From Acutalibacteraceae bacterium (lineage in GTDB: Bacteria; Bacillota; Clostridia; Oscillospirales; Acutalibacteraceae): a stretch of DNA of 64,000 nucleotides. Numbering within the stretch: position 1 is the first letter of the stretch; every line of letters starts with the position of its first letter. Location: contig JAZOAO010000027.1 of the NCBI GenBank assembly GCA_045595505.1, positions 84,717-148,716 on the forward strand, in the 5' to 3' direction. Under the pieces are notes generated by a model that had not been told where the DNA came from, searched no databases, and saw only the letters and a program-made list of their open reading frames with translations. Of the stretch, positions 17,253-28,076 are shown one piece after another. Both the position numbers and the translations under genes were made by a program.

Positions 17253-19877
17253 ATGAGCAAGAAATTCGTTTATTTGTTCAAAGAGGGCGACGCTTCGATG
17301 CGTGAGCTTCTCGGTGGTAAGGGTGCAAACCTTGCAGAAATGACCAACATCGGTCTTCCTGTTCCTCAGGGTTTCACAATCACAACTGAAGCTTGTACTC
17401 AGTACTATGAGGACGGCAGAAAAATCAACGATGATATCCAGGCACAGATTATGGAATACATCGACAAAATGGAAGAAATTGTTGGCAAGAAATTCGGCGA
17501 CAAAGAAAATCCCCTTCTCGTTTCTGTTCGTTCAGGTGCTCGTGCATCAATGCCCGGTATGATGGATACAATCCTTAACCTTGGTCTTAACGAAGATGTT
17601 GTTGAAGTTATGGCTGCAAAGTCAGGCAACGCTCGTTGGGCTTGGGACTGCTACAGAAGATTTATTCAGATGTATTCTGACGTTGTTATGGAAGTTGGTA
17701 AGAAATACTTCGAGCAGCTTATCGATGAAATGAAAGAAGCTAAAGGCGTAACTCAGGATATCGAGCTTACTGCTGAAGACCTCAAAGAGCTTGCAGGTCA
17801 GTTCAAAGCTGAATACAAATCAAAAATCGGTAAGGACTTCCCCTCAGATCCCAAAGAACAGCTTATGGGCGCTGTTGAGGCTGTTTTCCGTTCATGGGAC
17901 AACCCCCGTGCAAACGTTTACCGTCGTGACAACGATATTCCTTATTCATGGGGTACTGCTGTTAACGTTCAGGCTATGGCATTCGGTAATATGGGTGATG
18001 ATTGCGGTACAGGTGTTGCTTTCACTCGTGACCCCGCTACAGGTGAAAAAGGCCTTATGGGTGAATTCCTTGTAAATGCACAGGGTGAAGACGTTGTTGC
18101 CGGTGTTCGTACTCCTATGCCCATCGCTGAGATGGCTGAAAAATTCCCCGAGGCATTCGCAGAGTTTACAAAGGTTTGCGCAATCCTCGAAGATCATTAT
18201 AGAGATATGCAGGATATGGAGTTCACTGTTGAAGCAGGCAAGCTCTATATGCTCCAGACAAGAAACGGTAAGAGAACTGCAAAAGCTGCTCTTAAAATCG
18301 CTTGCGACCTCGTTGACGAAGGTATGATCGATGAAAAGAAAGCTGTTGCAATGATCGATCCCAGAAACCTTGACACTCTTCTCCATCCCCAGTTTGATGC
18401 TAAAGCTCTTAAAGCTGCAACTCCTGCAGGTAAAGGTCTTGGCGCATCTCCCGGTGCTGCTTGCGGTAAAGTAGTATTTACTGCTGAAGATGCAGAGGCT
18501 TGGAATGCTCGTGGCGAAAAGGTTGTTCTTGTTCGTCTTGAAACATCTCCCGAAGATATCACAGGTATGAAAGCATCTCAGGGTATTCTTACAGTTCGTG
18601 GCGGTATGACATCTCACGCAGCTGTTGTTGCTCGTGGTATGGGTACTTGCTGTGTATCCGGCTGTGGCGATATCAAAATGGACGAGGAAAACAAGAAATT
18701 TGAACTCGCCGGTAAAACATATGTTGAAGGCGACTACATCTCAATCGACGGTTCTACAGGTAACATCTACGACGGCATCATCCCCACAGTTGACGCTGAA
18801 ATCGCAGGTGAATTCGGCAGAATTATGGATTGGGCTGATAAATACAGAACTCTTAAAGTTCGTACAAATGCTGATACTCCCGCTGATGCTAAAAAAGCTC
18901 GCGAGCTCGGTGCAGAAGGTATCGGTCTCTGCCGTACAGAGCATATGTTCTTCGAGGCAGAAAGAATTGCTGCATTCCGCGAAATGATCTGTGCAGACAC
19001 AGTTGAGGAAAGAGAAGCAGCTCTTGATAAGATTCTTCCTTATCAGCAGGGCGACTTCGAAGCTCTCTATGAAGCTCTTGAAGGCAACCCCGTTACAATC
19101 CGTTTCCTTGATCCTCCGCTTCATGAGTTTGTTCCCACTGAAGAAGCTGACATCAAGCTCCTTGCAGATGCACAGGGCAAATCCGTTGAAGATATCAAAG
19201 CTATCATCGCTTCTCTTCACGAGTTTAACCCTATGATGGGTCACCGTGGCTGCCGTCTTGCAGTTACTTACCCCGAAATTGCTGCAATGCAGACAAAGGC
19301 TGTAATCCGCGCAGCTATCAATGTTCAGAAAGCACACGCTGATTGGAATATCGTTCCCGAAATTATGATTCCTCTTGTTGGCGACGTTAAGGAACTCAAG
19401 TTCGTTAAGAAGGTTGTTGTTGAAACTGCTGATGCTGAAATCGCAGCTGCAGGTGCAGACCTTAAATACGAAGTTGGTACAATGATCGAAATCCCCAGAG
19501 CTTGTATCACAGCTGACGAAGTTGCTAAAGAAGCTGACTTCTTCTGCTTCGGTACAAACGACCTTACTCAGATGACATACGGCTTCAGCCGTGATGATGC
19601 CGGTAAGTTCCTTACAGCTTACTATGACAGCAAAATCTTCGAGAACGATCCCTTTGCAAAGCTCGACCAGAACGGCGTTGGCGCTCTTATGGAAATGGCT
19701 GTTGAAAAAGGTAAAGCAAGTGGTAAGAACCTCCACTACGGTATCTGTGGTGAGCACGGCGGCGACCCCGTTTCCGTTGAATTCTGCCACAAGATTGGCC
19801 TTAACTACGTTTCTTGCTCACCCTTCCGCGTTCCGATCGCTCGCCTCGCAGCAGCTCAGGCTGCCATCAAGGGATGA
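17253..19877 (+). CDS. ppdK: Pyruvate, phosphate dikinase
   Basis: 874 aa with the PPDK phospho-histidine region GILTVRGGMTSHAAVVARGMG and a C-terminal PEP-utilising TIM barrel (GIGLCRTEHMFF, FFCFGTNDLTQ). Confidence 0.97.
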   Translation: MSKKFVYLFKEGDASMRELLGGKGANLAEMTNIGLPVPQGFTITTEACTQYYEDGRKINDDIQAQIMEYIDKMEEIVGKKFGDKENPLLVSVRSGARASMPGMMDTILNLGLNEDVVEVMAAKSGNARWAWDCYRRFIQMYSDVVMEVGKKYFEQLIDEMKEAKGVTQDIELTAEDLKELAGQFKAEYKSKIGKDFPSDPKEQLMGAVEAVFRSWDNPRANVYRRDNDIPYSWGTAVNVQAMAFGNMGDDCGTGVAFTRDPATGEKGLMGEFLVNAQGEDVVAGVRTPMPIAEMAEKFPEAFAEFTKVCAILEDHYRDMQDMEFTVEAGKLYMLQTRNGKRTAKAALKIACDLVDEGMIDEKKAVAMIDPRNLDTLLHPQFDAKALKAATPAGKGLGASPGAACGKVVFTAEDAEAWNARGEKVVLVRLETSPEDITGMKASQGILTVRGGMTSHAAVVARGMGTCCVSGCGDIKMDEENKKFELAGKTYVEGDYISIDGSTGNIYDGIIPTVDAEIAGEFGRIMDWADKYRTLKVRTNADTPADAKKARELGAEGIGLCRTEHMFFEAERIAAFREMICADTVEEREAALDKILPYQQGDFEALYEALEGNPVTIRFLDPPLHEFVPTEEADIKLLADAQGKSVEDIKAIIASLHEFNPMMGHRGCRLAVTYPEIAAMQTKAVIRAAINVQKAHADWNIVPEIMIPLVGDVKELKFVKKVVVETADAEIAAAGADLKYEVGTMIEIPRACITADEVAKEADFFCFGTNDLTQMTYGFSRDDAGKFLTAYYDSKIFENDPFAKLDQNGVGALMEMAVEKGKASGKNLHYGICGEHGGDPVSVEFCHKIGLNYVSCSPFRVPIARLAAAQAAIKG

Positions 19878-19969
19878 AGGAATTAAGCTGAACCCCAGTA
19901 ATATCAAGGGTTTCGCGACTTCTCTTACAAAAGTTGTAGCTGTATAACAGCTATTAAACTAGCAATCAG

Positions 19970-20002
19970 CTCCCCGTATTCGAAAGAATATGGGGAGTTT
20001 TT
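19970..20002 (+). terminator. Intrinsic terminator of ppdK
   Basis: 12-bp stem ctccccgtattc / gaatatggggag with one G-U pair, a gaaa loop, then tttttg. Confidence 0.85.
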
Positions 20003-20170
20003 GTAACAAAATAATAGGACAATTATGTTAGTGAAATGTTTTTTGAAATTTAAAGAGTAATATATGTGATTTAAAAAAACACTTGTATTTAGACGAAAAT
20101 ATGATATAATATAGAAGGGATAATGGTTGAAGAATATAATATAATTGAATGAACAAACTATGTATGTAGG

Positions 20171-20199
20171 TTGACATTTTATATTATATATGATATTAT
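20171..20199 (+). promoter_or_regulatory. Strong sigma-A type promoter of the island xre gene
   Basis: TTGACA (20171-20176), a 17-nt spacer, then TATTAT (20194-20199), 34 nt upstream of the xre ATG. A second candidate, ttgtat-N17-tataat, lies about 90 nt further upstream. Confidence 0.6.
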
Positions 20200-20232
20200 G
20201 TTATCCCGTTAATTGAAAAGGAGGTTTTTTGT

Positions 20233-20553
20233 ATGTCAGCCGAGTTGAGACGATTAGGCTCTAATATTGAAAAAGCTTCACGAAGTAACTACAAGCAGAT
20301 TGAAGAATTTGCAAACGATACTAATTTGTCTGTGAGAGATGTTCACCGTCTTTTTGAAGGCAGATTGATATTATCCCCTTTACAGCTTAAAGTGATTTCT
20401 GAGAAAGTCAATACACCGTTAAAGGAATTGCTTGATATTTCAGGTGAATATACTCTTGTTGAGTGTATGGGTCGCTTTAAAGATGAAAAAAATGAAGACA
20501 AGATTCTTGATTTGATTGATAATTATATTGATCTAGTTGAAGCTGTTTTTTGA
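20233..20553 (+). CDS. XRE-family helix-turn-helix regulator (106 aa)
   Basis: LGSNIEKASRSNYKQIEEFANDTNLSVRDVHRLFEGRLILSPLQLKVISEKVNTPLKELL follows the HTH_XRE/Cro-C1 pattern. RBS aaaggagg is present. It lies directly upstream of an ImmA/IrrE gene. Confidence 0.75.
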   Translation: MSAELRRLGSNIEKASRSNYKQIEEFANDTNLSVRDVHRLFEGRLILSPLQLKVISEKVNTPLKELLDISGEYTLVECMGRFKDEKNEDKILDLIDNYIDLVEAVF

Positions 20554-20560
20554 TTTTAGA

Positions 20561-20590
20561 GGGCATTTACAGGTTGTAAATGCCCTTTTT
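20561..20590 (+). terminator. Intrinsic terminator/attenuator between xre and immA
   Basis: Perfect 11-bp stem gggcatttaca / tgtaaatgccc (20561-20571 / 20575-20585), a 3-nt loop, then tttttc. It ends only 22 nt before the immA ATG and no promoter lies in between. Confidence 0.8.
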
Positions 20591-20612
20591 CTATAGGGAG
20601 TGATTTCAAATA

Positions 20613-21461
20613 ATGGATACAGAAGAGAAGAGAAAATATTTTGATGAAATAATTATCGATGTAGTTGATGAATGTCGGAAAGAAAACGATATTGTTAATG
20701 TCGTAATTCGCGATGATGTTTTTAAAATTTTAGAAAGTCATTGCAAAGTGATTTATTATCCACTTGAGAATGAGGATATAAATGGATTCCATGTAACTAG
20801 AACGGTATGTGGTGAAAGTTGTCATTTCGTATTTATTAATACTTGGAATACGCTGGAACGCCAAGTGTTTACTGCTGCTCATGAACTTGGGCATATTTGG
20901 AATGCTTATTCTAAGATTAAAGTAAAATTTCCAGAAATAGACGAATATGTGAGAATTACTGTTGATGAAATAACCCAAGAACCTCCGGAGGAGTTTGTTT
21001 CAAATCAATTTGCAGCACAACTATTATTACCTAAAGAGCAGTTTATTAGTGCTGTAAACGAGGCATTGGAGAAGTTGGATTATAATGGAAAAACTATTTC
21101 TAAGATGAATATGCTTAGATTAATAGCTAGTTTAATGGATACTTTTTTAGTAGACTACAAAGCTGTTACCAAGAGACTTTGCGAGATTGGGCGACTTAAA
21201 CCAGAAGTATATACTATTGTTAAAAATTATGAGTATGAATCTGATTTTGAAGAAACTTTTGATAGTATATTAAAACAGGGTGGTCACAAACGTTTGAACA
21301 AACGTACAGAAAATAATAGAAACATTTCTCATTTAACAGATGTTATTAGACAAGCAGAAAAACAAGGGTGTGTTTTGTCTTCTACAATAGAGAATTTAAA
21401 AACTGAATTTGAGATAACAACAACCGAACCTTCAGACCAGGATAGTGTGGTTGTGTTCTAA
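20613..21461 (+). CDS. ImmA/IrrE-family (COG2856, M78) zinc metallopeptidase
   Basis: The HExxH motif occurs in FTAAHELGHIW. The downstream block EEFVSNQFAAQLLLPKEQF is characteristic of ImmA/IrrE peptidases. Confidence 0.85.
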   Translation: MDTEEKRKYFDEIIIDVVDECRKENDIVNVVIRDDVFKILESHCKVIYYPLENEDINGFHVTRTVCGESCHFVFINTWNTLERQVFTAAHELGHIWNAYSKIKVKFPEIDEYVRITVDEITQEPPEEFVSNQFAAQLLLPKEQFISAVNEALEKLDYNGKTISKMNMLRLIASLMDTFLVDYKAVTKRLCEIGRLKPEVYTIVKNYEYESDFEETFDSILKQGGHKRLNKRTENNRNISHLTDVIRQAEKQGCVLSSTIENLKTEFEITTTEPSDQDSVVVF

Positions 21462-22083
21462 GGATGTGGTACCAGTGGGGAAAGTAGTTGTCGATACTGA
21501 TTTTCTCAATCATATTTTAAAAACTACTAATGGTGAAGATGTGATGCAAAAAATCGTTGACTTTTATGGATACGAATTAGTGATGCATCCGTGGGTATAT
21601 GAAAGAGAAATTAAGAACATAAATACAACAGTTGAAGCCTATGTGCAAAAAAATGTTGTTGTATTAAATTACACAGACTTTCTGAAAACTGAGGAGGATG
21701 AAATGCTTTATGATATTGTGTTTCAAGATCTTCATCGGGAAATGAATCGCGGTAAAACTGTTGATGAAAGTTACAGGTCATTTAAGACATATAATAAATC
21801 GGGAATGAATCTTGGTGAAATCCACTCTGTAATTTTGTCTAGGTTTTCTGGAATACCCTTGTTGTTATCTGACGATCATAATGCTAAAGAAATTGCTGCT
21901 AAAAAAATTAATGCTGATGGATATGAATTGAATGTTGAAAAATCCTTTGATATAATGTGTGATATAGTCACAAAAGATAAAAGTATTTTGGAACTAGAAG
22001 ATATTATTTCAGTAATAAGAAATCATAAACAAGAATATCAGAAAAATTATATAAGACAAATAAAGGAACTATATAAAAATTAA
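21445..22083 (+). CDS. PIN-like (DUF4411-type) putative nuclease
   Basis: Acidic residues occur in PIN-like spacing (VVVDTDFLNH, HPWVYEREI, NLGEIHSV, LLLSDDHNAKE). It overlaps or abuts the end of immA. The start is ambiguous: GTG at 21445, 21466 or 21475, the last about 10 nt after aagga. The domain call is by eye only. Confidence 0.5.
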   Translation: MWLCSKDVVPVGKVVVDTDFLNHILKTTNGEDVMQKIVDFYGYELVMHPWVYEREIKNINTTVEAYVQKNVVVLNYTDFLKTEEDEMLYDIVFQDLHREMNRGKTVDESYRSFKTYNKSGMNLGEIHSVILSRFSGIPLLLSDDHNAKEIAAKKINADGYELNVEKSFDIMCDIVTKDKSILELEDIISVIRNHKQEYQKNYIRQIKELYKN

Positions 22084-22215
22084 ACAATTATTGGCGGCGG
22101 AGTTGTTATAGAGTACATAATAAGATAGTTGTTCTTTTGAATGTAAATGAAGGGGAACAAATTTAAATATAAATCTAAAAGACTTTTAAATTCAATTATT
22201 CAGGAGAGAGCGAAA

Positions 22216-22752
22216 ATGATATTATCAGATAAAACATTAACTAAAATGCTTGAAGAAAAAACACTTGTTGTTGAACCGATTGAAAAGGAACAGATTCAAC
22301 CTGCAAGTATAGATATAAGATTAGGAAATACTTTCAGTATCGTAGAAGATACATCAACGGGCATTATAAATTTAGAAAATGAAATTAAATACAAAACAAT
22401 AACAAGTGACTCATACATATTATTGCCTAACCAATTTGTGTTAGCAACTACTATGGAATATTTCGATTTACCTGATGATTTGACTGCTTTTGTTGAGGGC
22501 AGAAGTTCTCTTGGTAGAATGGGATTGTTTATTCAAAATGCAGGTTGGGTTGACCCTGGATTCAAAGGTGAAATCACACTTGAACTTTACAATGCTAATC
22601 GTTGTGCAATTGAACTTAAAGCAGGTAGGAGAGTAGGGCAGCTTGTATTTGCAAAAATGGATGATACAGCGCTTAACCCATATAATGGTAAGTATCAAGG
22701 TCAGCGTGGTGCAACAGGTTCAAGAGTGTTTATGGATAAGGAAATTAAGTAA
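22216..22752 (+). CDS. dcd: dCTP deaminase (Dcd/dUTPase-fold)
   Basis: MILSDKTL...PASIDIRLGN...FVEGRSSLGRMGLFIQNAGWVDPGFKGEITLELYN...GQLVF...YNGKYQGQRG aligns along its length with canonical Dcd. Start placed at ATG 22216 behind RBS aggagag; the track ORF starts at 22147. Confidence 0.9.
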   Translation: MILSDKTLTKMLEEKTLVVEPIEKEQIQPASIDIRLGNTFSIVEDTSTGIINLENEIKYKTITSDSYILLPNQFVLATTMEYFDLPDDLTAFVEGRSSLGRMGLFIQNAGWVDPGFKGEITLELYNANRCAIELKAGRRVGQLVFAKMDDTALNPYNGKYQGQRGATGSRVFMDKEIK

Positions 22753-22780
22753 ATAAATTCCTACATTTCCTCGTTGCTCC

Positions 22781-22807
22781 ACAGGCAGCTATCAAGGACT
22801 AATTCTT
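22781..22807 (+). repeat. 27-nt 3'-UTR repeat, copy 1 (acaggcagctatcaaggactaattctt)
   Basis: Identical to 26477..26503. Each copy begins about 25-30 nt after a stop codon that sits in the context aagtaa (the dcd stop and the nuclease-like gene stop). Confidence 0.9.
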
Positions 22808-22866
22808 AAACTATCAAGGTGCAAACCTGATTAGCACGTAAAGTGTAAAACTAAATATCAAATTGA

Positions 22867-22901
22867 GACTTCGTTGGAGAAATCCGGCGGAGTCTTTTTT
22901 T
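22867..22901 (+). terminator. Intrinsic terminator after dcd (member of a 3-copy hairpin family)
   Basis: 12-bp stem gacttcgttgga / tccggcggagtc with three G-U pairs, a gaaa loop and 7 T. The apical ttgga-gaaa-tcc is shared with the hairpins at 23295 and 26527. Confidence 0.8.
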
Positions 22902-22906
22902 GTACC

Positions 22907-23275
22907 TTTTTAGACTTACAAAATCGGCAATTGCTCAGGCGTTATTCCAAGCCCCACCCACGCCCACCACAAGCGTTCCAAGTGCCTTCGAGCATAACTC
23001 AGGTAAACATCCTGAAAGTTTCAATCCCAGTAGAATCAAGCGATTACCGAGGTGAGAACGGGTGTAAAAGGGTCGCTCCGAAATCCGAAAAAATGTCTTT
23101 GTGCAGGCGTAAAGCGAATGTGAACAACCGCAGATACCCCTGATAATCCAAGCCTTAACTCTGGCAGGCGTGAAAGTTATTTGGGACTTTTTTGAGATTG
23201 TTTTGGTCTTTGTCCGTTGATAATCAAATTCGCACTTTGGTTGATAAATTGAATTGCACTTGAATATTATTCGGA
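22907..23275 (+). ncRNA. GC-rich non-coding unit; candidate structured RNA or decayed cassette (function unknown)
   Basis: It is bracketed by two terminators. My hand count gives 116 G+C in 240 nt (48%) for 22921-23160, versus 25-33% in two 60-nt lines counted in the next cassette. Neither strand has an ORF with an RBS. Short direct repeats are present: caggcgt three times, ccaagcc twice, caagcg twice. The strand is assumed from the flanking terminators. Confidence 0.3.
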
Positions 23276-23294
23276 AAAGCAAATAACTAAATGA

Positions 23295-23326
23295 ATCCCC
23301 TTGGAGAAATCCAAGGGGATCTTTTG
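23295..23326 (+). terminator. Intrinsic terminator (hairpin family copy 2)
   Basis: Perfect 11-bp stem atccccttgga / tccaaggggat, a gaaa loop, then cttttg. Confidence 0.85.
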
Positions 23327-23328
23327 TG

Positions 23329-23440
23329 TATAGTCCTTTTCATTGTACAACCAATTGGCTTCGTTAGTTGATTTTTAGTGTTTTGATTTTGTATAATGGC
23401 GATACTTTATAAAATGAAAGGGTTGTTAATATGCAGAACG
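23329..23440 (+). repeat. Promoter/leader module copy A (TTGTACAA palindrome, -35/-10, RBS, first three codons MQN)
   Basis: I count 6 mismatches and no indel over about 110 nt against 25295..25406. Contents: ttgtacaa 23343-23350, ccaattgg 23351-23358, TTGATT 23368-23373, an 18-nt spacer, TATAAT 23392-23397, RBS aaaggg, ATG 23431. Confidence 0.9.
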
Positions 23441-24192
23441 AAAATTTACTTTTTTCGTTAAAAACAAACAATGAATATGCCTATGCTTTTTATATTTACG
23501 AAGATGGCGCTCTTGTGAGTATTAAAAATTCGACAATAAAAATATTCTCACTTAAACCGAGCACATTAAAGAAATTCCGCTCTCAAATAAAAAAGTCTCA
23601 AAAAAGACTGAACGATGTACCCCAACAGTTAATCGGATATAAAGACGGGCTTATACTTTTTGTAAGTGAGGTGTGTTTCGGAGATAAAATCTTTTTTATT
23701 GATTACACCATAAATGATGCTGAAACACCTAACGAAAACTACCGCTGTACAATAAAGGCGTGCTTGGATGCACTTTTCCTTTTAGGAAAATTAGAGCCGC
23801 TTGTAATTAACGATACTGGAATTTATATGCTTGACCATTCACAAGACATTCACATCCAAATACAAACCACACGCCAACAGATATTAAATGAAACAGATGT
23901 GTATGTAAAATATTCATTGATAACATTTTTGATGACAATACTTCATTGGAGTAACTACGAAATATATTATTTAACCAGCGGCACACTCCCCATTTCCAAA
24001 AATGATATTTATAGTTTCTGTTTACTTGATGACGTTGTTCAAGATTGTTCTTATGACTCTATGCCGTTTAATGATTTTATGAATTTATTAATGAAAATAA
24101 ACAAAACCGCAAAAGTAAAATATCAGCACGCGTTACATAGCTGGTCATTAGATGCTGTGCGAGATTGTATACTTGCAAACAAAACAATATAG
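23431..24192 (+). CDS. Hypothetical protein (253 aa), island cassette 1
   Basis: Clean ORF driven by module copy A. I recognise no family. Confidence 0.6.
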   Translation: MQNENLLFSLKTNNEYAYAFYIYEDGALVSIKNSTIKIFSLKPSTLKKFRSQIKKSQKRLNDVPQQLIGYKDGLILFVSEVCFGDKIFFIDYTINDAETPNENYRCTIKACLDALFLLGKLEPLVINDTGIYMLDHSQDIHIQIQTTRQQILNETDVYVKYSLITFLMTILHWSNYEIYYLTSGTLPISKNDIYSFCLLDDVVQDCSYDSMPFNDFMNLLMKINKTAKVKYQHALHSWSLDAVRDCILANKTI

Positions 24193-24208
24193 CATCTTGA
24201 TATAAAAA

Positions 24209-24251
24209 TCCCTTTTATTGTACAACAAAGAGGTTTCGTTAGTTGATTTTT
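24209..24251 (+). repeat. Partial copy of the module (tcccttttattgtacaac...tttcgttagttgattttt)
   Basis: It shares the palindrome ttgtacaa (24218-24225) and the -35-containing gttagttgattttt segment with copies A and C, then diverges. A possible -10, taaaat, lies at about 24266. Confidence 0.75.
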
Positions 24252-24352
24252 GAAAATCCGTTTGCTAAAATGAAGTGGGAATTATACTTTGTGACAAAAT
24301 TTTATATTTCGTAGTTGTTAATACGAATACAATTTTAAAACGGGGGAGCAAT

Positions 24353-25273
24353 ATGTGGAAGATTACAAGAAAGCTTAGTTTTGCGATAGTGGACGAGGAA
24401 GAGTTTACTGATTTTCAAGAAGCTAAAATTCAATTTCGTAATGCTATTAAAGATAGGGTAGGCAGACATTTACCCAAATTTATAAAACAAATTGAAGGAT
24501 ATTGTAAGAAATATTACCCTTTAGGACATCCAGATGAATTTGATTTGTTGAAAGATTTGCTTTGTAATATTGTTACTAATCCTGAATATCCTGAAAACCC
24601 AGAAGTTTTTAATTTTTTGCGTTTTGAAGATGATAATGTTGAATTCTATATGGATGAAACTACAAAGGAAATAGTTGTTAGAGCAAAAAAAGAAGAACTC
24701 TCAGGAGAATTCCCATATATTGAAATAAATTCGATATTACTTGATGACCCAAAAGGTGAATATTATTTCTTTTTTACAAACAAATATAGAAATGAATATA
24801 CTAATCATTACTCAACCGATATTACGTTATATTGTGATGAGTTGAAAAATGATGAGATTAATTCTGATAACGAAGACCTTGAAGATGAATCCGAGGAACT
24901 GTATTCTGATTTGGTGATAATTGAGTCTTCATATGTGTTAGGAATAAGTATAAAAAAAGAACGTTTGTTGACTAAAGAAGAAATAGAAAAATATAAAAAA
25001 GAAATACCGAGAGGGGATGTATATGACCGAAGAGAGAATCTTTATTTTCCAAATAAAGCAGATATGCCAAAAAGTGAATTTAGGGAAATAGGGGTTTTGT
25101 GTTATACAGATGGTAGGGATATCTATTCCCGTGTGGCTCTTGATATAGAAAATGCAGATAAAACAAATTTAGTGGTTGGTGACGAATTTCTTTATGAGAC
25201 TTGTTTTTTTACTTTAATAGATAAAAACTTAGCTGTTTCAACCGATTATGAATGTAATTTTGAATTTGAATGA
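24353..25273 (+). CDS. Hypothetical acidic protein (306 aa), island cassette 2
   Basis: Start placed at ATG 24353 (MWKITRKL) behind RBS gggggag; the track ORF starts at 24275. The protein is Asp/Glu-rich (DNEDLEDESEELYSD). No family recognised. Confidence 0.6.
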   Translation: MWKITRKLSFAIVDEEEFTDFQEAKIQFRNAIKDRVGRHLPKFIKQIEGYCKKYYPLGHPDEFDLLKDLLCNIVTNPEYPENPEVFNFLRFEDDNVEFYMDETTKEIVVRAKKEELSGEFPYIEINSILLDDPKGEYYFFFTNKYRNEYTNHYSTDITLYCDELKNDEINSDNEDLEDESEELYSDLVIIESSYVLGISIKKERLLTKEEIEKYKKEIPRGDVYDRRENLYFPNKADMPKSEFREIGVLCYTDGRDIYSRVALDIENADKTNLVVGDEFLYETCFFTLIDKNLAVSTDYECNFEFE

Positions 25274-25294
25274 TTTTTTGTCTGTATAGGTTTA

Positions 25295-25406
25295 TATAGT
25301 CCCTTTTATTGTACAACCAAGTGGCTTCGTTAGTTGATTTTTGGTGTTTCGATTTTGTATAATAGCGATACTTTATAAAATGAAAGGGTTGTTAATATGC
25401 AGAATA
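25295..25406 (+). repeat. Promoter/leader module copy C
   Basis: Same architecture as copy A at a constant offset of 1966 nt: ttgtacaa 25309-25316, TTGATT 25334-25339, TATAAT 25358-25363, ATG 25397 (MQN...). Confidence 0.9.
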
Positions 25407-25942
25407 AAAATTATGTTGATTTTTCCACCAATATTTCCCCCACTGATTTTACCCTTGAAATGTATAAAAACACAGCAGAGGACGGCACGTTATATCTTAA
25501 TAATTGGTACGATGTGGATTGTGAAGACTGTCAGACCTATAACAGCTTTGTGGCAAATATTAAATGGTCGGCAGAAGATGTTGAACATGCAATATGTGAA
25601 TATAACAAACTTTATAAGGAGTTAGACGTTATTGCAGACCACCTTGATGAATTAGATGGTACATCCGCAACAGCACAAGAAGTATTACCCGATGAATTAG
25701 TAGCAAGCTATTGTATTTTTGTTGCACCTTTTGAAGCAACAAAACAGCAAGAATTAAATGCTGAGGTTATTGGCAGAGTGTCAGACGGTCCTTGTGGGTA
25801 TGGATTAATCCGCCACGCTCAACGCTTGTGCCGTTTGTTATCCCTTAACGCACCAGAGTTAGTAGTTCAAAACGAAGCAAGAATGTTATTTGCAAGTCTT
25901 GCAATTCATTCTTTCGGCGAAAAAATAGAAAAGGTAGATTGA
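25397..25942 (+). CDS. Hypothetical protein (181 aa), island cassette 3
   Basis: Clean ORF behind module copy C. It shares only its first three codons with cassette 1. No family recognised. Confidence 0.6.
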   Translation: MQNKNYVDFSTNISPTDFTLEMYKNTAEDGTLYLNNWYDVDCEDCQTYNSFVANIKWSAEDVEHAICEYNKLYKELDVIADHLDELDGTSATAQEVLPDELVASYCIFVAPFEATKQQELNAEVIGRVSDGPCGYGLIRHAQRLCRLLSLNAPELVVQNEARMLFASLAIHSFGEKIEKVD

Positions 25943-26011
25943 GCAGTAAAATAATGACTTTTAAAAATTTGTTTGCTATGATGTATTATATTATTAAAAT
26001 GGGGTGTTGTT

Positions 26012-26452
26012 ATGGGTGAAAATCGATTAAAAACAAATCCTGCAGGTGCAGCAGGTGAAAGTTATGTTCTTGCAGAGCTGTTGCGTCGTGGATATACAGC
26101 ATCGACCTTGTATAATTGTGCAAAAGATTATGATTTGCTTGCATACCATCCAGATAAGGATAAATATCTAAAGATTCAAGTTAAGACGAGTCAATCAAAA
26201 AGTAAAATTTGGAAATTGGGCGACAAACCGCCTTACTATGATAATGAGACATTTTACGTTTTTGTAACAATGGTTGGCGAAGAAATGCCTGAGTATTATA
26301 TCGTAGATAGCAAAAAAGTTTACGAAGTAGCAGAAAAAAGACATAATACACCTACTCGAAGCGGAACTGCAAGAACTTCGGGTAGAAAGTTTAAATTTGA
26401 AAAAGACGAAGAAAAACAATATAAAGATTGGAATATATTGTTGAGTAAGTAA
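26012..26452 (+). CDS. Putative PD-(D/E)xK-fold nuclease (146 aa), island cassette 4
   Basis: The order GAAGESYVLAELLRRGY ... DYDLLAY ... LKIQVKT resembles the helix / D / (E/Q)xK core of restriction-endonuclease-like and Hjc-like proteins. RBS ggggtg is present. The call is by motif only. Confidence 0.45.
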   Translation: MGENRLKTNPAGAAGESYVLAELLRRGYTASTLYNCAKDYDLLAYHPDKDKYLKIQVKTSQSKSKIWKLGDKPPYYDNETFYVFVTMVGEEMPEYYIVDSKKVYEVAEKRHNTPTRSGTARTSGRKFKFEKDEEKQYKDWNILLSK

Positions 26453-26476
26453 TTTCCCCACTTTGCTAACTGCTGG

Positions 26477-26503
26477 ACAGGCAGCTATCAAGGACTAATT
26501 CTT
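26477..26503 (+). repeat. 27-nt 3'-UTR repeat, copy 2
   Basis: Identical to 22781..22807. Here it is followed directly by aaaagcaaataactaa plus a terminator. In copy 1 the same continuation appears only after 23275. Confidence 0.9.
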
Positions 26504-26526
26504 TTAAAAAAGCAAATAACTAACGA

Positions 26527-26556
26527 ATCCCCTTGGAGCAATCCGAGGGGATTTTC
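26527..26556 (+). terminator. Intrinsic terminator (hairpin family copy 3), right end of the island
   Basis: 11-bp stem atccccttgga / tccgaggggat with one G-U pair, a gcaa loop, then ttttc. Confidence 0.8.
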
Positions 26557-26666
26557 TATGTGCAGATATTGAAAACAAAACATCTTTATTGTATAATGTG
26601 TCATGAAAGAGGTTTCATAATTTTAATATTGTTTTTTGTCGCAATTAAAATATTTTAAACAACAAG

Positions 26667-28076
26667 GTGGTTCTTTTGGCTGATAAAAACATTGACAAAA
26701 CCTTGCAACGAGAGAAAAAAGAGCTTGCAAGGCTGAATAAAGCTAAAAATCGCAATTCGGGAAGCAAATATTTCTTTGTTTTGCTTGTTTTGATTGCTAT
26801 TGTTAATATTCTTGATGAGGTTACAAGCAACCTGACTGTTACTGTGCAGTCATCTTTTGTAACAGAATTTTTTGTTAATAATCCCTTTATGGGGAAATAT
26901 TATACCTACGAGGATGGGCTTGCTTTTCATTCAAGTATAGGTGTGTTTACCTATGTTCTGGGCATATTCACTCCATTTTATAAGGCTCTTGCAGATAAAT
27001 GGGGCAGAAAACCACTTTTTGTCCTTTCAACCTTGGGAATGGCAACTGGACTTCTGGTTATTCATTTGTCATCAAGCTACATAATGTTTCTTGTGGGTTT
27101 TGCAATTATCAGCTTTTTTATGGGGCACGATATTCAGATTATCTATATTCTTGAAGAAGCACCCAATAAGCACAGAGCAAAGATTTACAGTTTTCTTAAA
27201 AGCTTTGGTATTTTAGGCGTTGTTCTGATTCCTACGCTCCGCGATATTCTTATGGGGGACGATGCAACAAAATGGCGAGAAATTTTTCTTGTTCCTGCTC
27301 TTATCGGCTTTGTTGCAGTTGGTCTTGTTCTTGTTTTCGCAAAGGACACTAAAGTGTTTATCAGCGAAAGAATAGAGTATCTTTCCCGACCACTTGAGCA
27401 GAGAGAAGCGGAAAAAGCCCTCAAAAAGCAACAAAAGGAAGCCCAGAGAAATCAGTCAGGTGTATTTAATGGCGTAAAATATATTTTTTCAAACAAAGAT
27501 ACCAAAATGCTCATTATTGCTCACATCATTTTTGATGCGGCAATGCCTGCGATTGCATTGTATTTTGAATCATCAATGCATCGGGCAGGAATGAGCACCG
27601 CAAATATAACAAAAGCATTGTTTATGGTGCCTGTAATTTATGCTACAATAACATTTCTTTCGGGTTTTATTGCCGATAAGCTGGGAAGAAAAGTGACTGT
27701 AACACTTTTCTCAATAATTTGTATTATAGGCTATGTTCTTTTTGTGGCAGGAATTCTGAATAATTGGAACCCGTATCTTATCGGTTCTCTTGCAGGTCTT
27801 TATCAAGGGTCTTATTGGATTGGCAGGGACTATATGAATGTTATGATGACTGAAAAAGTTCCGACAGATATCAGAGCATCGGTTGTTGGTGCGGAAGGTC
27901 TTTTAGTTATAATAGGTCTTGCAGTTGGTTATCTGACAACGATTATCGGAATGATTGCTATGCCTATATGGTGGGCTTGTCTTATGGTTTCCATTCCAAC
28001 AGTTTCTGTTGCGGCGATTATATTTGTTCTTAAGGTTAAAGAAACAAAAGGCGCGAGCTTAGATGAAATAGAATAA
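26667..28076 (+). CDS. MFS transporter (about 12 TM)
   Basis: Two hydrophobic six-helix halves are separated by a charged loop (EQREAEKALKKQQKEAQR). The MFS loop motif LADKWGRKP lies between TM2 and TM3. The start codon is uncertain (GTG 26667 or TTG 26676). Confidence 0.75.
   Translation: MVLLADKNIDKTLQREKKELARLNKAKNRNSGSKYFFVLLVLIAIVNILDEVTSNLTVTVQSSFVTEFFVNNPFMGKYYTYEDGLAFHSSIGVFTYVLGIFTPFYKALADKWGRKPLFVLSTLGMATGLLVIHLSSSYIMFLVGFAIISFFMGHDIQIIYILEEAPNKHRAKIYSFLKSFGILGVVLIPTLRDILMGDDATKWREIFLVPALIGFVAVGLVLVFAKDTKVFISERIEYLSRPLEQREAEKALKKQQKEAQRNQSGVFNGVKYIFSNKDTKMLIIAHIIFDAAMPAIALYFESSMHRAGMSTANITKALFMVPVIYATITFLSGFIADKLGRKVTVTLFSIICIIGYVLFVAGILNNWNPYLIGSLAGLYQGSYWIGRDYMNVMMTEKVPTDIRASVVGAEGLLVIIGLAVGYLTTIIGMIAMPIWWACLMVSIPTVSVAAIIFVLKVKETKGASLDEIE

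Follow-up and report, generated by a model that had tools for sequence, protein, structure and literature searches.

Introduction

Cassette arrays in which every gene is followed by the same kind of site have been well characterised mainly for integrons, and integrons are rare in the Firmicutes. Elements that are flanked by attachment (att) sites and have no integrase also form accretion arrays; examples are the cis-mobilizable elements (CIMEs) beside ICESt1 and ICESt3 at the 3' end of fda and the remnants of tycheposons at tRNA genes. This article deals with an array of small, unrelated genes behind the pyruvate phosphate dikinase gene (ppdK) of an Acutalibacteraceae bacterium. It lies in a stretch of 64,000 nucleotides (nt), called the window below (assembly GCA_045595505.1, contig JAZOAO010000027.1, positions 84,717 to 148,716). 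The part under study, 23295-26556, is probably the distal portion of an array of small cassettes accreted at the 3' end of ppdK, in which a repeated module of 110 nt would serve both as a shuffling unit and as an expression unit. Positions are those of the window, genes and signals are on its plus strand unless another strand is given, and related loci are referred to as L001, L007 and so on.

Shuffling units of a comparable kind are known from T4-like phages. Their promoter(early) stem-loop elements (PeSLs) consist of a stem-loop terminator and a strong sigma-70-type promoter, and they are located between the mostly ORFan genes of a hyperplastic region (PMC2839356, PMC4122927). PeSLs mediate modular shuffling, and the insertions, deletions and replacements that distinguish phage strains end in these repeats (Arbiol et al. 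2010, PMC2839356; Comeau et al. 2014, PMC4122927). The target gene has also been described: in the Bacteroidota, conjugative transposons integrate at a 20-bp motif in the same ppdK codons that are copied here, and they regenerate the stop codon (PMC11005914).

Copies of the ppdK End and the Cassette Arm

The ppdK gene (17253-19877; Pfam PPDK_N, PEP-utilizers and PEP-utilizers_C) lies with recA and cysS in the chromosomal surroundings of the array, and the array is situated between ppdK and a gene for a transporter of the major facilitator superfamily (MFS). The RecA sequence falls into a cluster labelled Clostridia, Ruminococcaceae or Oscillospiraceae, and a metagenome-assembled Acutalibacteraceae genome is the nearest one. 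The cassette region has 32.5% G+C, as against 46.6% in ppdK. The same gene precedes the arrays of L001, L007, L031 and L033.

The present end of ppdK, made up of a core and a tail (CAGGCTGCCATCAAGGGATGA, 19857-19877), keeps an in-frame stop. The final codons of the gene (CAGGCnGCnATC...stop) are duplicated at 22782 and 26478, which gives core and tail copies at 19857, 22782 and 26478. Both displaced copies, 22782-22802 and, from the repeat comparison, 26478-26498, read CAGGCAGCTATCAAGGACTAA, and copy 1 is identical to the real ppdK end of L007. Copy 1 is directly behind a dCTP deaminase-like gene, copy 2 is behind the gene for a protein of 146 amino acids (aa), and a predicted terminator comes after each. 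The copied ppdK end is included in a 63-nt direct repeat (22745-22807 and 26441-26503, 79% identity), which had gone unnoticed in a previous reading of the window made from its letters and open reading frames (ORFs) only, here called the sequence-only reading.

In front of each displaced core there is a short arm. Arm type 1 (TTTCCCCACTTTGCTAACTGC, followed by the variable bases TGG and an A) is at 26453-26477 and occurs in 33 distinct contexts. Arm type 2 (TTCCTACATTTCCTCGTTGCTCCA) is at 22757-22781; it recurs at the end of the same gene island in L040 and L041, and is also present in L022. The 33 distinct cassette ends in related contigs have one and the same build, that is, the 21-nt arm TTTCCCCACTTTGCTAACTGC, three variable nucleotides and the core ACAGGCAGC, and a metagenome search with the pattern arm+NNN+ACAGGCAGC yielded eight further contigs. 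The arm starts a few bases past the stop codons of genes that are unrelated to each other, including those for Fic, GH39, leucine-rich repeat proteins of the BspA type, DUF5677, RhuM and PD-(D/E)xK proteins and ORFans. Conservation rises in a step that is located exactly at the stop codon of the cargo: the information content, about 0.3 bits within the cargo, reaches 1.0-2.0 in the arm, falls to 0.4-0.5 in the three variable bases and climbs back to 1.2-2.0 in ACAGGCAGC. The three hypervariable bases (26474-26476 in the window) read TGG, CAC, TAC, CCC, ACC, AGG, AAC, CCT or TGT among the 33 ends, and they may either separate two binding sites as a spacer or be left over from a crossover. As many as eight arms are found within 13.7 kb in L017. 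The sequence after the core varies between cassettes and resembles alternative C-terminal tails of ppdK, and different tail types are mixed in single arrays (L013, L015 and L017).

The possibility that the arm is a decayed coding end of ppdK was rejected, because its alignment to ppdK scores like that of shuffled sequences (p about 0.5-0.8 for type 1 and 0.09-0.6 for type 2). Since the arm is not detectably derived from ppdK, identity to the gene begins only at CAGGCAGC, as expected of a junction between the attachment sites of an element and its host (attP/attB); both arm types, and an unrelated junction of L016 as well, have this base as their starting point. Because the published attB motif of the PvCTn transposons, GYSGCNCARGCKGCHRTHGA, matches 19851-19870 with two mismatches, we read the core as a probable attachment site. 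Read this way, the window would hold two stacked elements without an integrase, namely cassette 1 (19857-22781), with an XRE-like, an M78, a 212-aa and a DCD gene, and cassette block 2 (23263-26477), with the genes for proteins of 253, 306, 181 and 146 aa.

Two related arrangements were observed away from ppdK. In L016 (JGI contig JAEIGA010001430.1, 4420-7240), a DUF5677 cassette that has a tail, a terminator, an arm and a core adjoins a T5orf172 gene and a gene for an Xer-like integrase that has an in-frame stop. In L029 (8400-12500), a more distant genome, an array contains two paralogues (174 and 184 aa) that belong to the family of the 181-aa protein, and its promoters are of the same family as those of the module; here an arm-like sequence, TTTTCTCACTTCGCTAATTGC, continues directly into a terminator without the ppdK core.

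The Repeated Module

The two full copies of the module, 23329-23438 and 25295-25404, are 110 nt each and differ by six mismatches and no indel, exactly as the sequence-only reading had it, and their similarity continues to 118 nt at 93% identity. Copy 1 contains a TAGTCC/TTGTACAA box, a -35 hexamer TTGATT at 23368, a TG-extended -10 hexamer TATAAT at 23392, a ribosome-binding site (RBS) and ATGCAGAA; copy 2 was delimited by repeat comparison, promoter scan and alignment of homologues. The scan predicts TTGATT-18-TATAAT in both (23368-23397 and 25334-25363), the -10 being of the TGTATAAT type. The 253-aa and 181-aa ORFs behind the two copies both start with MQN, and the proteins are otherwise unrelated (BLASTP E 0.46), as had been stated. 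A partial module (24209-24271) has the box, the -35 and a -10 of its own (TTGATT-17-TAAAAT, 24243-24271), and 44 nt of it (24209-24252) are 84-93% identical to both full copies. It had been described as keeping the palindrome and the -35 segment, and that holds. The bare 8-mer TTGTACAA is not significant, with four occurrences in the window versus 1.9 expected, and 11 of 100 shuffles reach four. A degenerate 37-nt module pattern, in turn, has three matches in the 64-kb window versus none in 100 shuffles.

Two more predicted promoter regions resemble the module. Ahead of the nuclease gene the scan finds a diverged promoter of the same family, ATGACT-17-TATGAT (25954-25982), which by eye resembles GTAAAATAGTTGATTTTTGAG..TTTGCTAAAAT of L033 and L029. 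The region upstream of the MFS gene (26569-26680), with an RBS and the predicted promoters TTGAAA-17-TATAAT and TTAATA-17-TAAAAT, aligns with the module. The degenerate copy reported from this region does align (26583-26617), but its 'ttgtataa', which had been taken for a degenerate palindrome, is part of the predicted -10 of TTGAAA-17-TATAAT.

Starting from a displaced ppdK tail, the order in each unit is a spacer, a hairpin with a GNRA loop, a TAGTCC..G.ACA box, TAGTTGATTTT (the -35), TTTTGTATAAT (the TG-extended -10), AAAATGAAAGG (the RBS) and ATG, with 17-18 nt between -35 and -10. The whole stretch can be aligned in 14 homologues from this and more distant genomes of several species, and the -35 and -10 are invariant in them. 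The positions A34, G35, C38, T41, T42, G47, A49, C50 and A51 of the box are also invariant across species, and some factor may bind there. At the distal end of the array, the native sequence ahead of the MFS gene can be aligned with the unit over its full length, from ppdK tail to RBS. The constant order, the 14 aligned homologues and the match to the MFS upstream region together indicate that the module is the box/promoter/RBS part of a predicted regulatory unit that forms the left end of a cassette.

The module was also found in other genomes, where it is ahead of at least five unrelated genes across strains. There are 15 distinct copies in related loci in addition to the three in the window, located ahead of five unrelated genes: full copies precede genes for the 253-aa protein, the 181-aa family and proteins of 463/466 aa (the 466-aa gene of L010 is behind the same module), and the partial form precedes genes for 306 and 155 aa. 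The exact pattern was found in a single GTDB species representative and in no JGI metagenome contig.

The terminator scan finds hairpins at 22865-22896 and 23295-23320, both with a GAAA loop, and the second of them is matched at 85% identity by the GCAA-loop hairpin at 26527-26553; this bears out the earlier view that the three are homologous. The left end of block 2 (23263-23328) consists of a spacer and the hairpin 23295-23320, and by homology it corresponds to the segment from ppdK stop to promoter in L001, L031 and L033. Directly behind ppdK there is another GAAA-loop hairpin (19970-19997), part of a unit type 'G' that is found behind an arm, at 91% identity, in L022 and L026. In all, the loci contain 22 distinct GNRA-loop hairpins with T tracts, some of them between tail and box as expected. 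The order of hairpin (23295-23320) and then promoter (23368-23397) is repeated in L001, L024, L029, L031 and L033. An apparent covariation of the terminator stems (96% of cells paired, two-sided changes at 11 of 11 pairs) was discarded as circular, because the hairpins had been preselected for pairing.

Each gene of the block has a homologous predicted promoter and some are preceded by a predicted terminator, so the earlier notion of separate expression cassettes stands. Two of the three module copies in the window, at 24209 and 25295, have no terminator in front of them and no arm or tail either. L017 contains an intermediate form, in which the module is preceded by a degenerate arm and a terminator. 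These two observations suggest that block 2 is the fusion product of cassettes that were once separate.

Differences between Strains

The arrays of related strains hold different sets of genes. In L001, ppdK is followed by a 182-aa gene, a 146-aa gene, a copy of the ppdK end, a 164-aa gene and a further copy; in L007, by genes for 253, 155, 180 and 271 aa and then a copy; and in L031, by genes for 181 and 271 aa, with the MFS gene further downstream. The module array of L007 begins about 400 nt past the ppdK stop.

The most informative comparison is that of the window with L007. The block of terminator, module and 253-aa gene has 99.2% identity as far as position 24271, which falls within the partial module, and the next gene then differs (306 aa in the window versus 155 aa in L007). 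Homology resumes at 25296, the start of module 2, and the block of module and 181-aa gene is 89% identical. The last gene differs once more (146-aa PD-(D/E)xK versus 271 aa), and the arm and core behind it are 100% identical. The flanking genes are less similar than the first block, with 94.9% identity for ppdK, 86.2% for MFS and 81% for TraX, so at least the 253-aa block appears to have been transferred recently between lineages.

Breakpoints within the module occur at several positions, namely behind the box, behind the -35/spacer and behind the third codon. The site G|TTAGTT, where homology between the window and L017 starts (24239), was considered as a crossover point and dropped, since it is just the edge of the invariant -35 block and other units read AAATTAGTTGA.

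Proposed Explanation and Alternatives

We propose that each cassette would have, at its left end, a replacement ppdK tail with a stop, a GNRA-tetraloop terminator, the TAGTCC..G.ACA box, a sigma-A-type promoter and an RBS; in the middle, one or a few cargo ORFs; and at its right end, the 21-nt arm, three variable bases and the core ACAGGCAGC, which would double as the attachment core of ppdK. On insertion at the core, ppdK would receive the new tail and the old tail would be pushed downstream, so that the last part of each cassette would be a copy of the ppdK end. The module would have two roles. It would insulate each gene and drive its transcription, and it would provide portable homology for the fusion, swapping and reassortment of cassettes, in the manner of PeSLs. 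The 253-aa and 181-aa genes would have been joined to the same unit by such an exchange, and they would share promoter, leader and first three codons for that reason. As the mechanism we prefer site-specific insertion at the core by an integrase supplied in trans, together with homologous recombination within the modules.

Several points weigh against this proposal. No integrase or recombinase was found in or next to any array examined, and an integrase domain is absent from the ORFs of 10853-33286 and from the called genes of the array loci. The sole integrase gene encountered, the decayed one of L016, belongs to an Xer-like family with many intact relatives of 302-307 aa, which are inside integrative and conjugative elements (ICEs) beside TraG and MobL genes and have no arm or core within 8 kb. 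Cassettes were not encountered as circles or in any other free form in the collections searched, neither the arm nor the module has an exact match in viral contigs, and blastn gave no match of the module-bearing unit in phage records or of the arm-bearing unit in plasmid records. Promoter and terminator function is predicted from consensus scans, and promoter-like sites by the consensus scan are not in excess over shuffles in this AT-rich region (39 versus 31.6). Nor do the breakpoints tell site-specific and homologous recombination apart, since it is only in these same short segments that the units are homologous to each other. The proposal also gives no account of how a new ORF is placed exactly before an arm. 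Finally, the loci compared are all metagenome assemblies or metagenome-assembled genomes, in which repeats of about 120 nt can create chimeric joins; this worry is countered by the recurrence of the same arrangements in independent samples (L001/L002/L003 and L017/L018/L019).

An alternative that dispenses with a dedicated recombinase is that the units are duplicates of the ancestral intergenic region between ppdK and the MFS gene, and that RecA crossovers after DNA uptake did the rest, as with the minimal mobile elements of Neisseria. The alignment of the entire unit, from ppdK tail to RBS, with the MFS upstream region is what such an origin would predict, as are the several breakpoint positions in the module (after the box, at the -35/spacer and at codon 3), and no recombinase would have to be found. 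Campbell-type insertion of a circle with one unit would also give the pattern gene-unit-gene. This account leaves aside, however, that a 21-nt arm not derived from ppdK is near-invariant behind 33 cargos and begins in a step exactly at the stop codon, that in elements of differing arm type the identity to ppdK always sets in at one base, CAGGCAGC, and that the same ppdK codons serve as the attB of an integrase in another phylum. Moreover, 20-120 nt of homology at 80-90% identity are a poor substrate for RecA. We therefore regard homologous recombination as the sole mechanism to be rather unlikely.

It is quite unlikely, in our estimate, that the locus is an integron-like system in which arm+NNN+core corresponds to attC and the ppdK end to attI, and in which a dedicated recombinase encoded elsewhere moves single cassettes. 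The mostly co-oriented cassettes of 1-4 genes would fit, each having the same bipartite site right past the stop, with up to eight sites in the 13.7 kb of L017, cassettes with different ppdK-tail types within one array (L013, L015, L017) and transfer at the level of cassettes between the window and L007. A linked integrase was not found, however, circles were not observed, and the cassettes carry a predicted promoter and terminator of their own, unlike those of integrons. There is also no conserved extended palindrome like that of attC. A folded site of this type was considered, because in this species a 19-nt inverted repeat (AACTAAC..GTTAGTT) brackets the terminator, and it was rejected because the repeat is missing in more distant units (L031 and L033).

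Cargo Proteins

The sequence-only reading had recognised no family for the cassette proteins and had considered anti-phage roles for them; the cargo is indeed mostly without a family and could include defence genes. The 253-aa protein (23431-24192, in the block shared with L007 at 99.2% identity) and the acidic 306-aa protein (24353-25273, replaced by a 155-aa gene in L007) have no match in Pfam, PADLOC, PHROGs or PDB sequences. The 146-aa protein (26012-26452) is a predicted nuclease with a PD-(D/E)xK, Hjc-like fold, as had been suspected. Its Pfam PDDEXK_5 score of 25.5 bits is just below the cut-off of 26.1; D41, Q56 and K58 are invariant and E16 nearly invariant among 13 homologues; and the model (predicted local distance difference test score, pLDDT, 86.9) gives Foldseek matches to Hjc 1gef, I-Ssp6803I 2ost and EcoRV at E 9e-5 to 1e-3 with probability 1.0.

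The 181-aa protein (25397-25942) has, at residues 134-173, a predicted mimic of the clamp helices of the RNA polymerase beta' subunit. In a sequence search, residues 136-168 match these helices in about 50 PDB chains; a profile of the family reaches E 0.0017-0.014 over 75 chains, and 19 of 32 residues are identical to Xanthomonas beta' 271-302. The residues R143, L144, L147, P153 and E160, which are invariant in the family, align with R278, L279, L282, P288 and E295 of beta'. The model (pLDDT 93.4) has beta' chains as its top Foldseek matches throughout, with a local root-mean-square deviation of 0.4-0.5 Å over 34 residues; the match is too short for good overall E-values, and Foldseek of the model against viral structures gave no match. 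Sigma and NusG/RfaH dock mainly on the clamp helices of beta' (PMC2995049, PMC12364105). The 181-aa protein may bind sigma and act as a decoy or sensor.

The family comprises 363 representative clusters at E<=1e-3 and has no Pfam model. One member of 546 aa (P0254) is a fusion of a related domain with a cREC receiver domain and a DnaG-type primase/Toprim core, which points to a mobile-element replication context for some members. In every array locus examined, the gene of this family has a full module before it and a variable partner after it. The partners are the 146/144-aa PD-(D/E)xK protein, a 313-aa Clp_N protein and proteins of 271, 187, 441, 374 and 397 aa. A fixed component with interchangeable partners suggests a two-gene system.

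A wider speculation, which we consider unlikely, would join these features to an integron-like system of the Oscillospirales/Acutalibacteraceae, with arm-NNN-core right behind the stop codon as its site, the coding end of ppdK as its primary site and a terminator and promoter supplied by every cassette, in which the commonest cassette is a two-gene one that pairs a clamp-helix decoy or sensor with interchangeable effectors. The targets of the decoy might then be phage sigma-like or clamp-helix-binding proteins, and the effectors proteins such as the PD-(D/E)xK, 271-aa and Clp_N ones.

The XRE/M78 Island and the Neighbouring Insert

Cassette 1 contains four genes (20233-22752), which encode an XRE-like protein of 106 aa, an M78/ImmA-like protein of 282 aa, a 212-aa protein and a DCD-like dCTP deaminase of 201 aa. 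Peptidase_M78 (2.5e-16) and DCD were recognised by Pfam. The first three genes match the PADLOC candidate system PDC-M69 in order (A 5e-4, B 2.5e-33, C 2.5e-13), and the DCD gene is extra. PDC-M69 is itself a candidate, and the defence role of cassette 1 is putative. The 106-aa protein has no Pfam helix-turn-helix (HTH) match even at E<=10, and its only match is that to PDC-M69A in PADLOC, at 5e-4.

A four-gene island of the same composition (XRE/M78/210-aa/DCD) is present in L040 and L041, bounded by core copies and with no module or palindrome adjoining, whereas L007, L017, L020-L025 and L027 have module cassettes and no XRE/M78 island among their called genes. Since the island is bounded by its own copies of the ppdK core, and has its own arm type, it is a separate cassette. 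The palindrome itself is variable: module copies have TCGTACAA, CTGTACAA or TTGTACAG and more distant homologues GCGTACAT or ACGGACAG at this site, while the -35, the -10 and the TAGTCC box stay invariant.

The sequence-only reading had taken TTGTACAA as an operator shared by all modules, bound by the XRE protein of the island and released by ImmA/M78 cleavage, after the model of ImmR/ImmA or CapH/CapP. Although an M78 protease gene with a small upstream gene is only 3 kb away, the -35 is preceded by a box that different species have conserved and all three copies in this genome have the 8-bp palindrome in it, this is very improbable, because the palindrome is not conserved among module copies and homologues, is located some 24 bp ahead of the -35 hexamer, clear of the promoter, and is absent from the XRE promoter region (20000-20232, which has AT-rich repeats of its own), while modules and island are independent in every other locus examined and the island, whose 106-aa protein has no detected HTH domain, matches a separate three-gene candidate system with its own boundaries. 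The box is conserved and may be bound by some factor, but nothing ties it to this XRE protein.

Between the displaced ppdK tail of cassette 1, with its hairpin, and the next terminator there is an insert of 366 nt (22897-23262), which is richer in G+C than the cassettes (42.6% versus 32.5%), is not assigned to a strand and contains a 115-aa minus-strand ORF without a Pfam match. A non-coding RNA in 22808-23262 or in the units was rejected, since no Rfam gathering threshold was reached and the hits at the E-value level were terminator-like and far below the gathering scores. Elsewhere, the position of the insert is taken by arrays of iteron-like ATATCAC/ATATCGC repeats, some of them in small hairpins (L007 613-965; L041 2960-3330). 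Such repeats were also observed behind ppdK tails in L009 and L017, and in L007 and L041 they are followed by a common segment of about 90 nt, cctctctggcgaagagaggggg...gcaccgaaaggtgcgtataat.

Significance

The locus joins the idea of a uniform cassette site, as in integrons, with shuffling promoter/terminator units, as in T4-like phages, in the chromosome of an uncultured rumen/gut member of the Clostridia. With it, the 3' end of ppdK would be a hot spot of integration in the Clostridia as well as in the Bacteroidota. The arm, three variable bases and the ppdK core form a compact signature with which accessory genes and candidate defence genes can be harvested from metagenomes, and the array sharpens the question of how an ORF gets joined to a cassette site. 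If the clamp-helix mimic is a true binder of factors of the sigma/NusG type, it would represent a novel type of protein that targets transcription or senses phages, in a family with hundreds of members.

Comparison with Known Systems

The likeness of cassette 1 to ImmR/ImmA and CapH/CapP consists of an M78 metalloprotease gene that comes after a small upstream gene and heads a putative, PDC-M69-like defence operon. It differs from them in that no HTH was detected, there is no shared operator and there is no co-occurrence with the module cassettes.

With integrons the array has in common that its cassettes are co-oriented, mostly have a single gene, are of unrelated function and have their site immediately past the stop; in both, the origin of the junction between ORF and site is unexplained. 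In contrast to integrons, no IntI-type recombinase adjoins the array, the site is a non-palindromic arm plus core without the R''(RYYYAAC)/R'(GTTRRRY) structure of attC, each gene has a predicted promoter of its own instead of a common promoter Pc, and the primary site is inside a coding gene.

CIMEs and tycheposon remnants are likewise stacked in tandem behind a housekeeping gene, at its 3' end, and every unit is bounded by a copy of that end; some have no recombinase and are presumably mobilised in trans. The units described here are much smaller, more numerous and more uniform than those, with one arm and one promoter family. As in other accretions of att-flanked elements, direct repeats of the gene end flank the units, the target ORF is restored, and identity between element and target starts sharply at CAGGCAGC and is absent upstream of it. 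The PvCTn-like conjugative transposons share the ppdK target coding for AAQAAI, the imperfect direct repeats and the regeneration of a stop within a few codons (PMC11005914). They are, however, large and conjugative, have their own integrase and belong to the Bacteroidota, whereas the elements here are 0.6-3.5 kb long, integrase-less and stacked in tandem.

The module resembles PeSLs in that a predicted terminator stem-loop is followed by a predicted sigma-70-type promoter, in that many copies lie between unrelated, mostly ORFan genes of a variable region, and in that the differences between close relatives end in the repeats (24271 and 25296). PeSLs belong to T4-like phages, with encapsidated mini-circles, whereas the units here are in a bacterial chromosome, have no viral or phage matches and are known from assemblies. 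The units here are also tied to one attachment site, with a copied gene tail on the left and the 21-nt arm on the right. In conclusion, we class the locus as a combination of two known themes, the accretion of att-flanked elements and the shuffling of promoter/terminator units.

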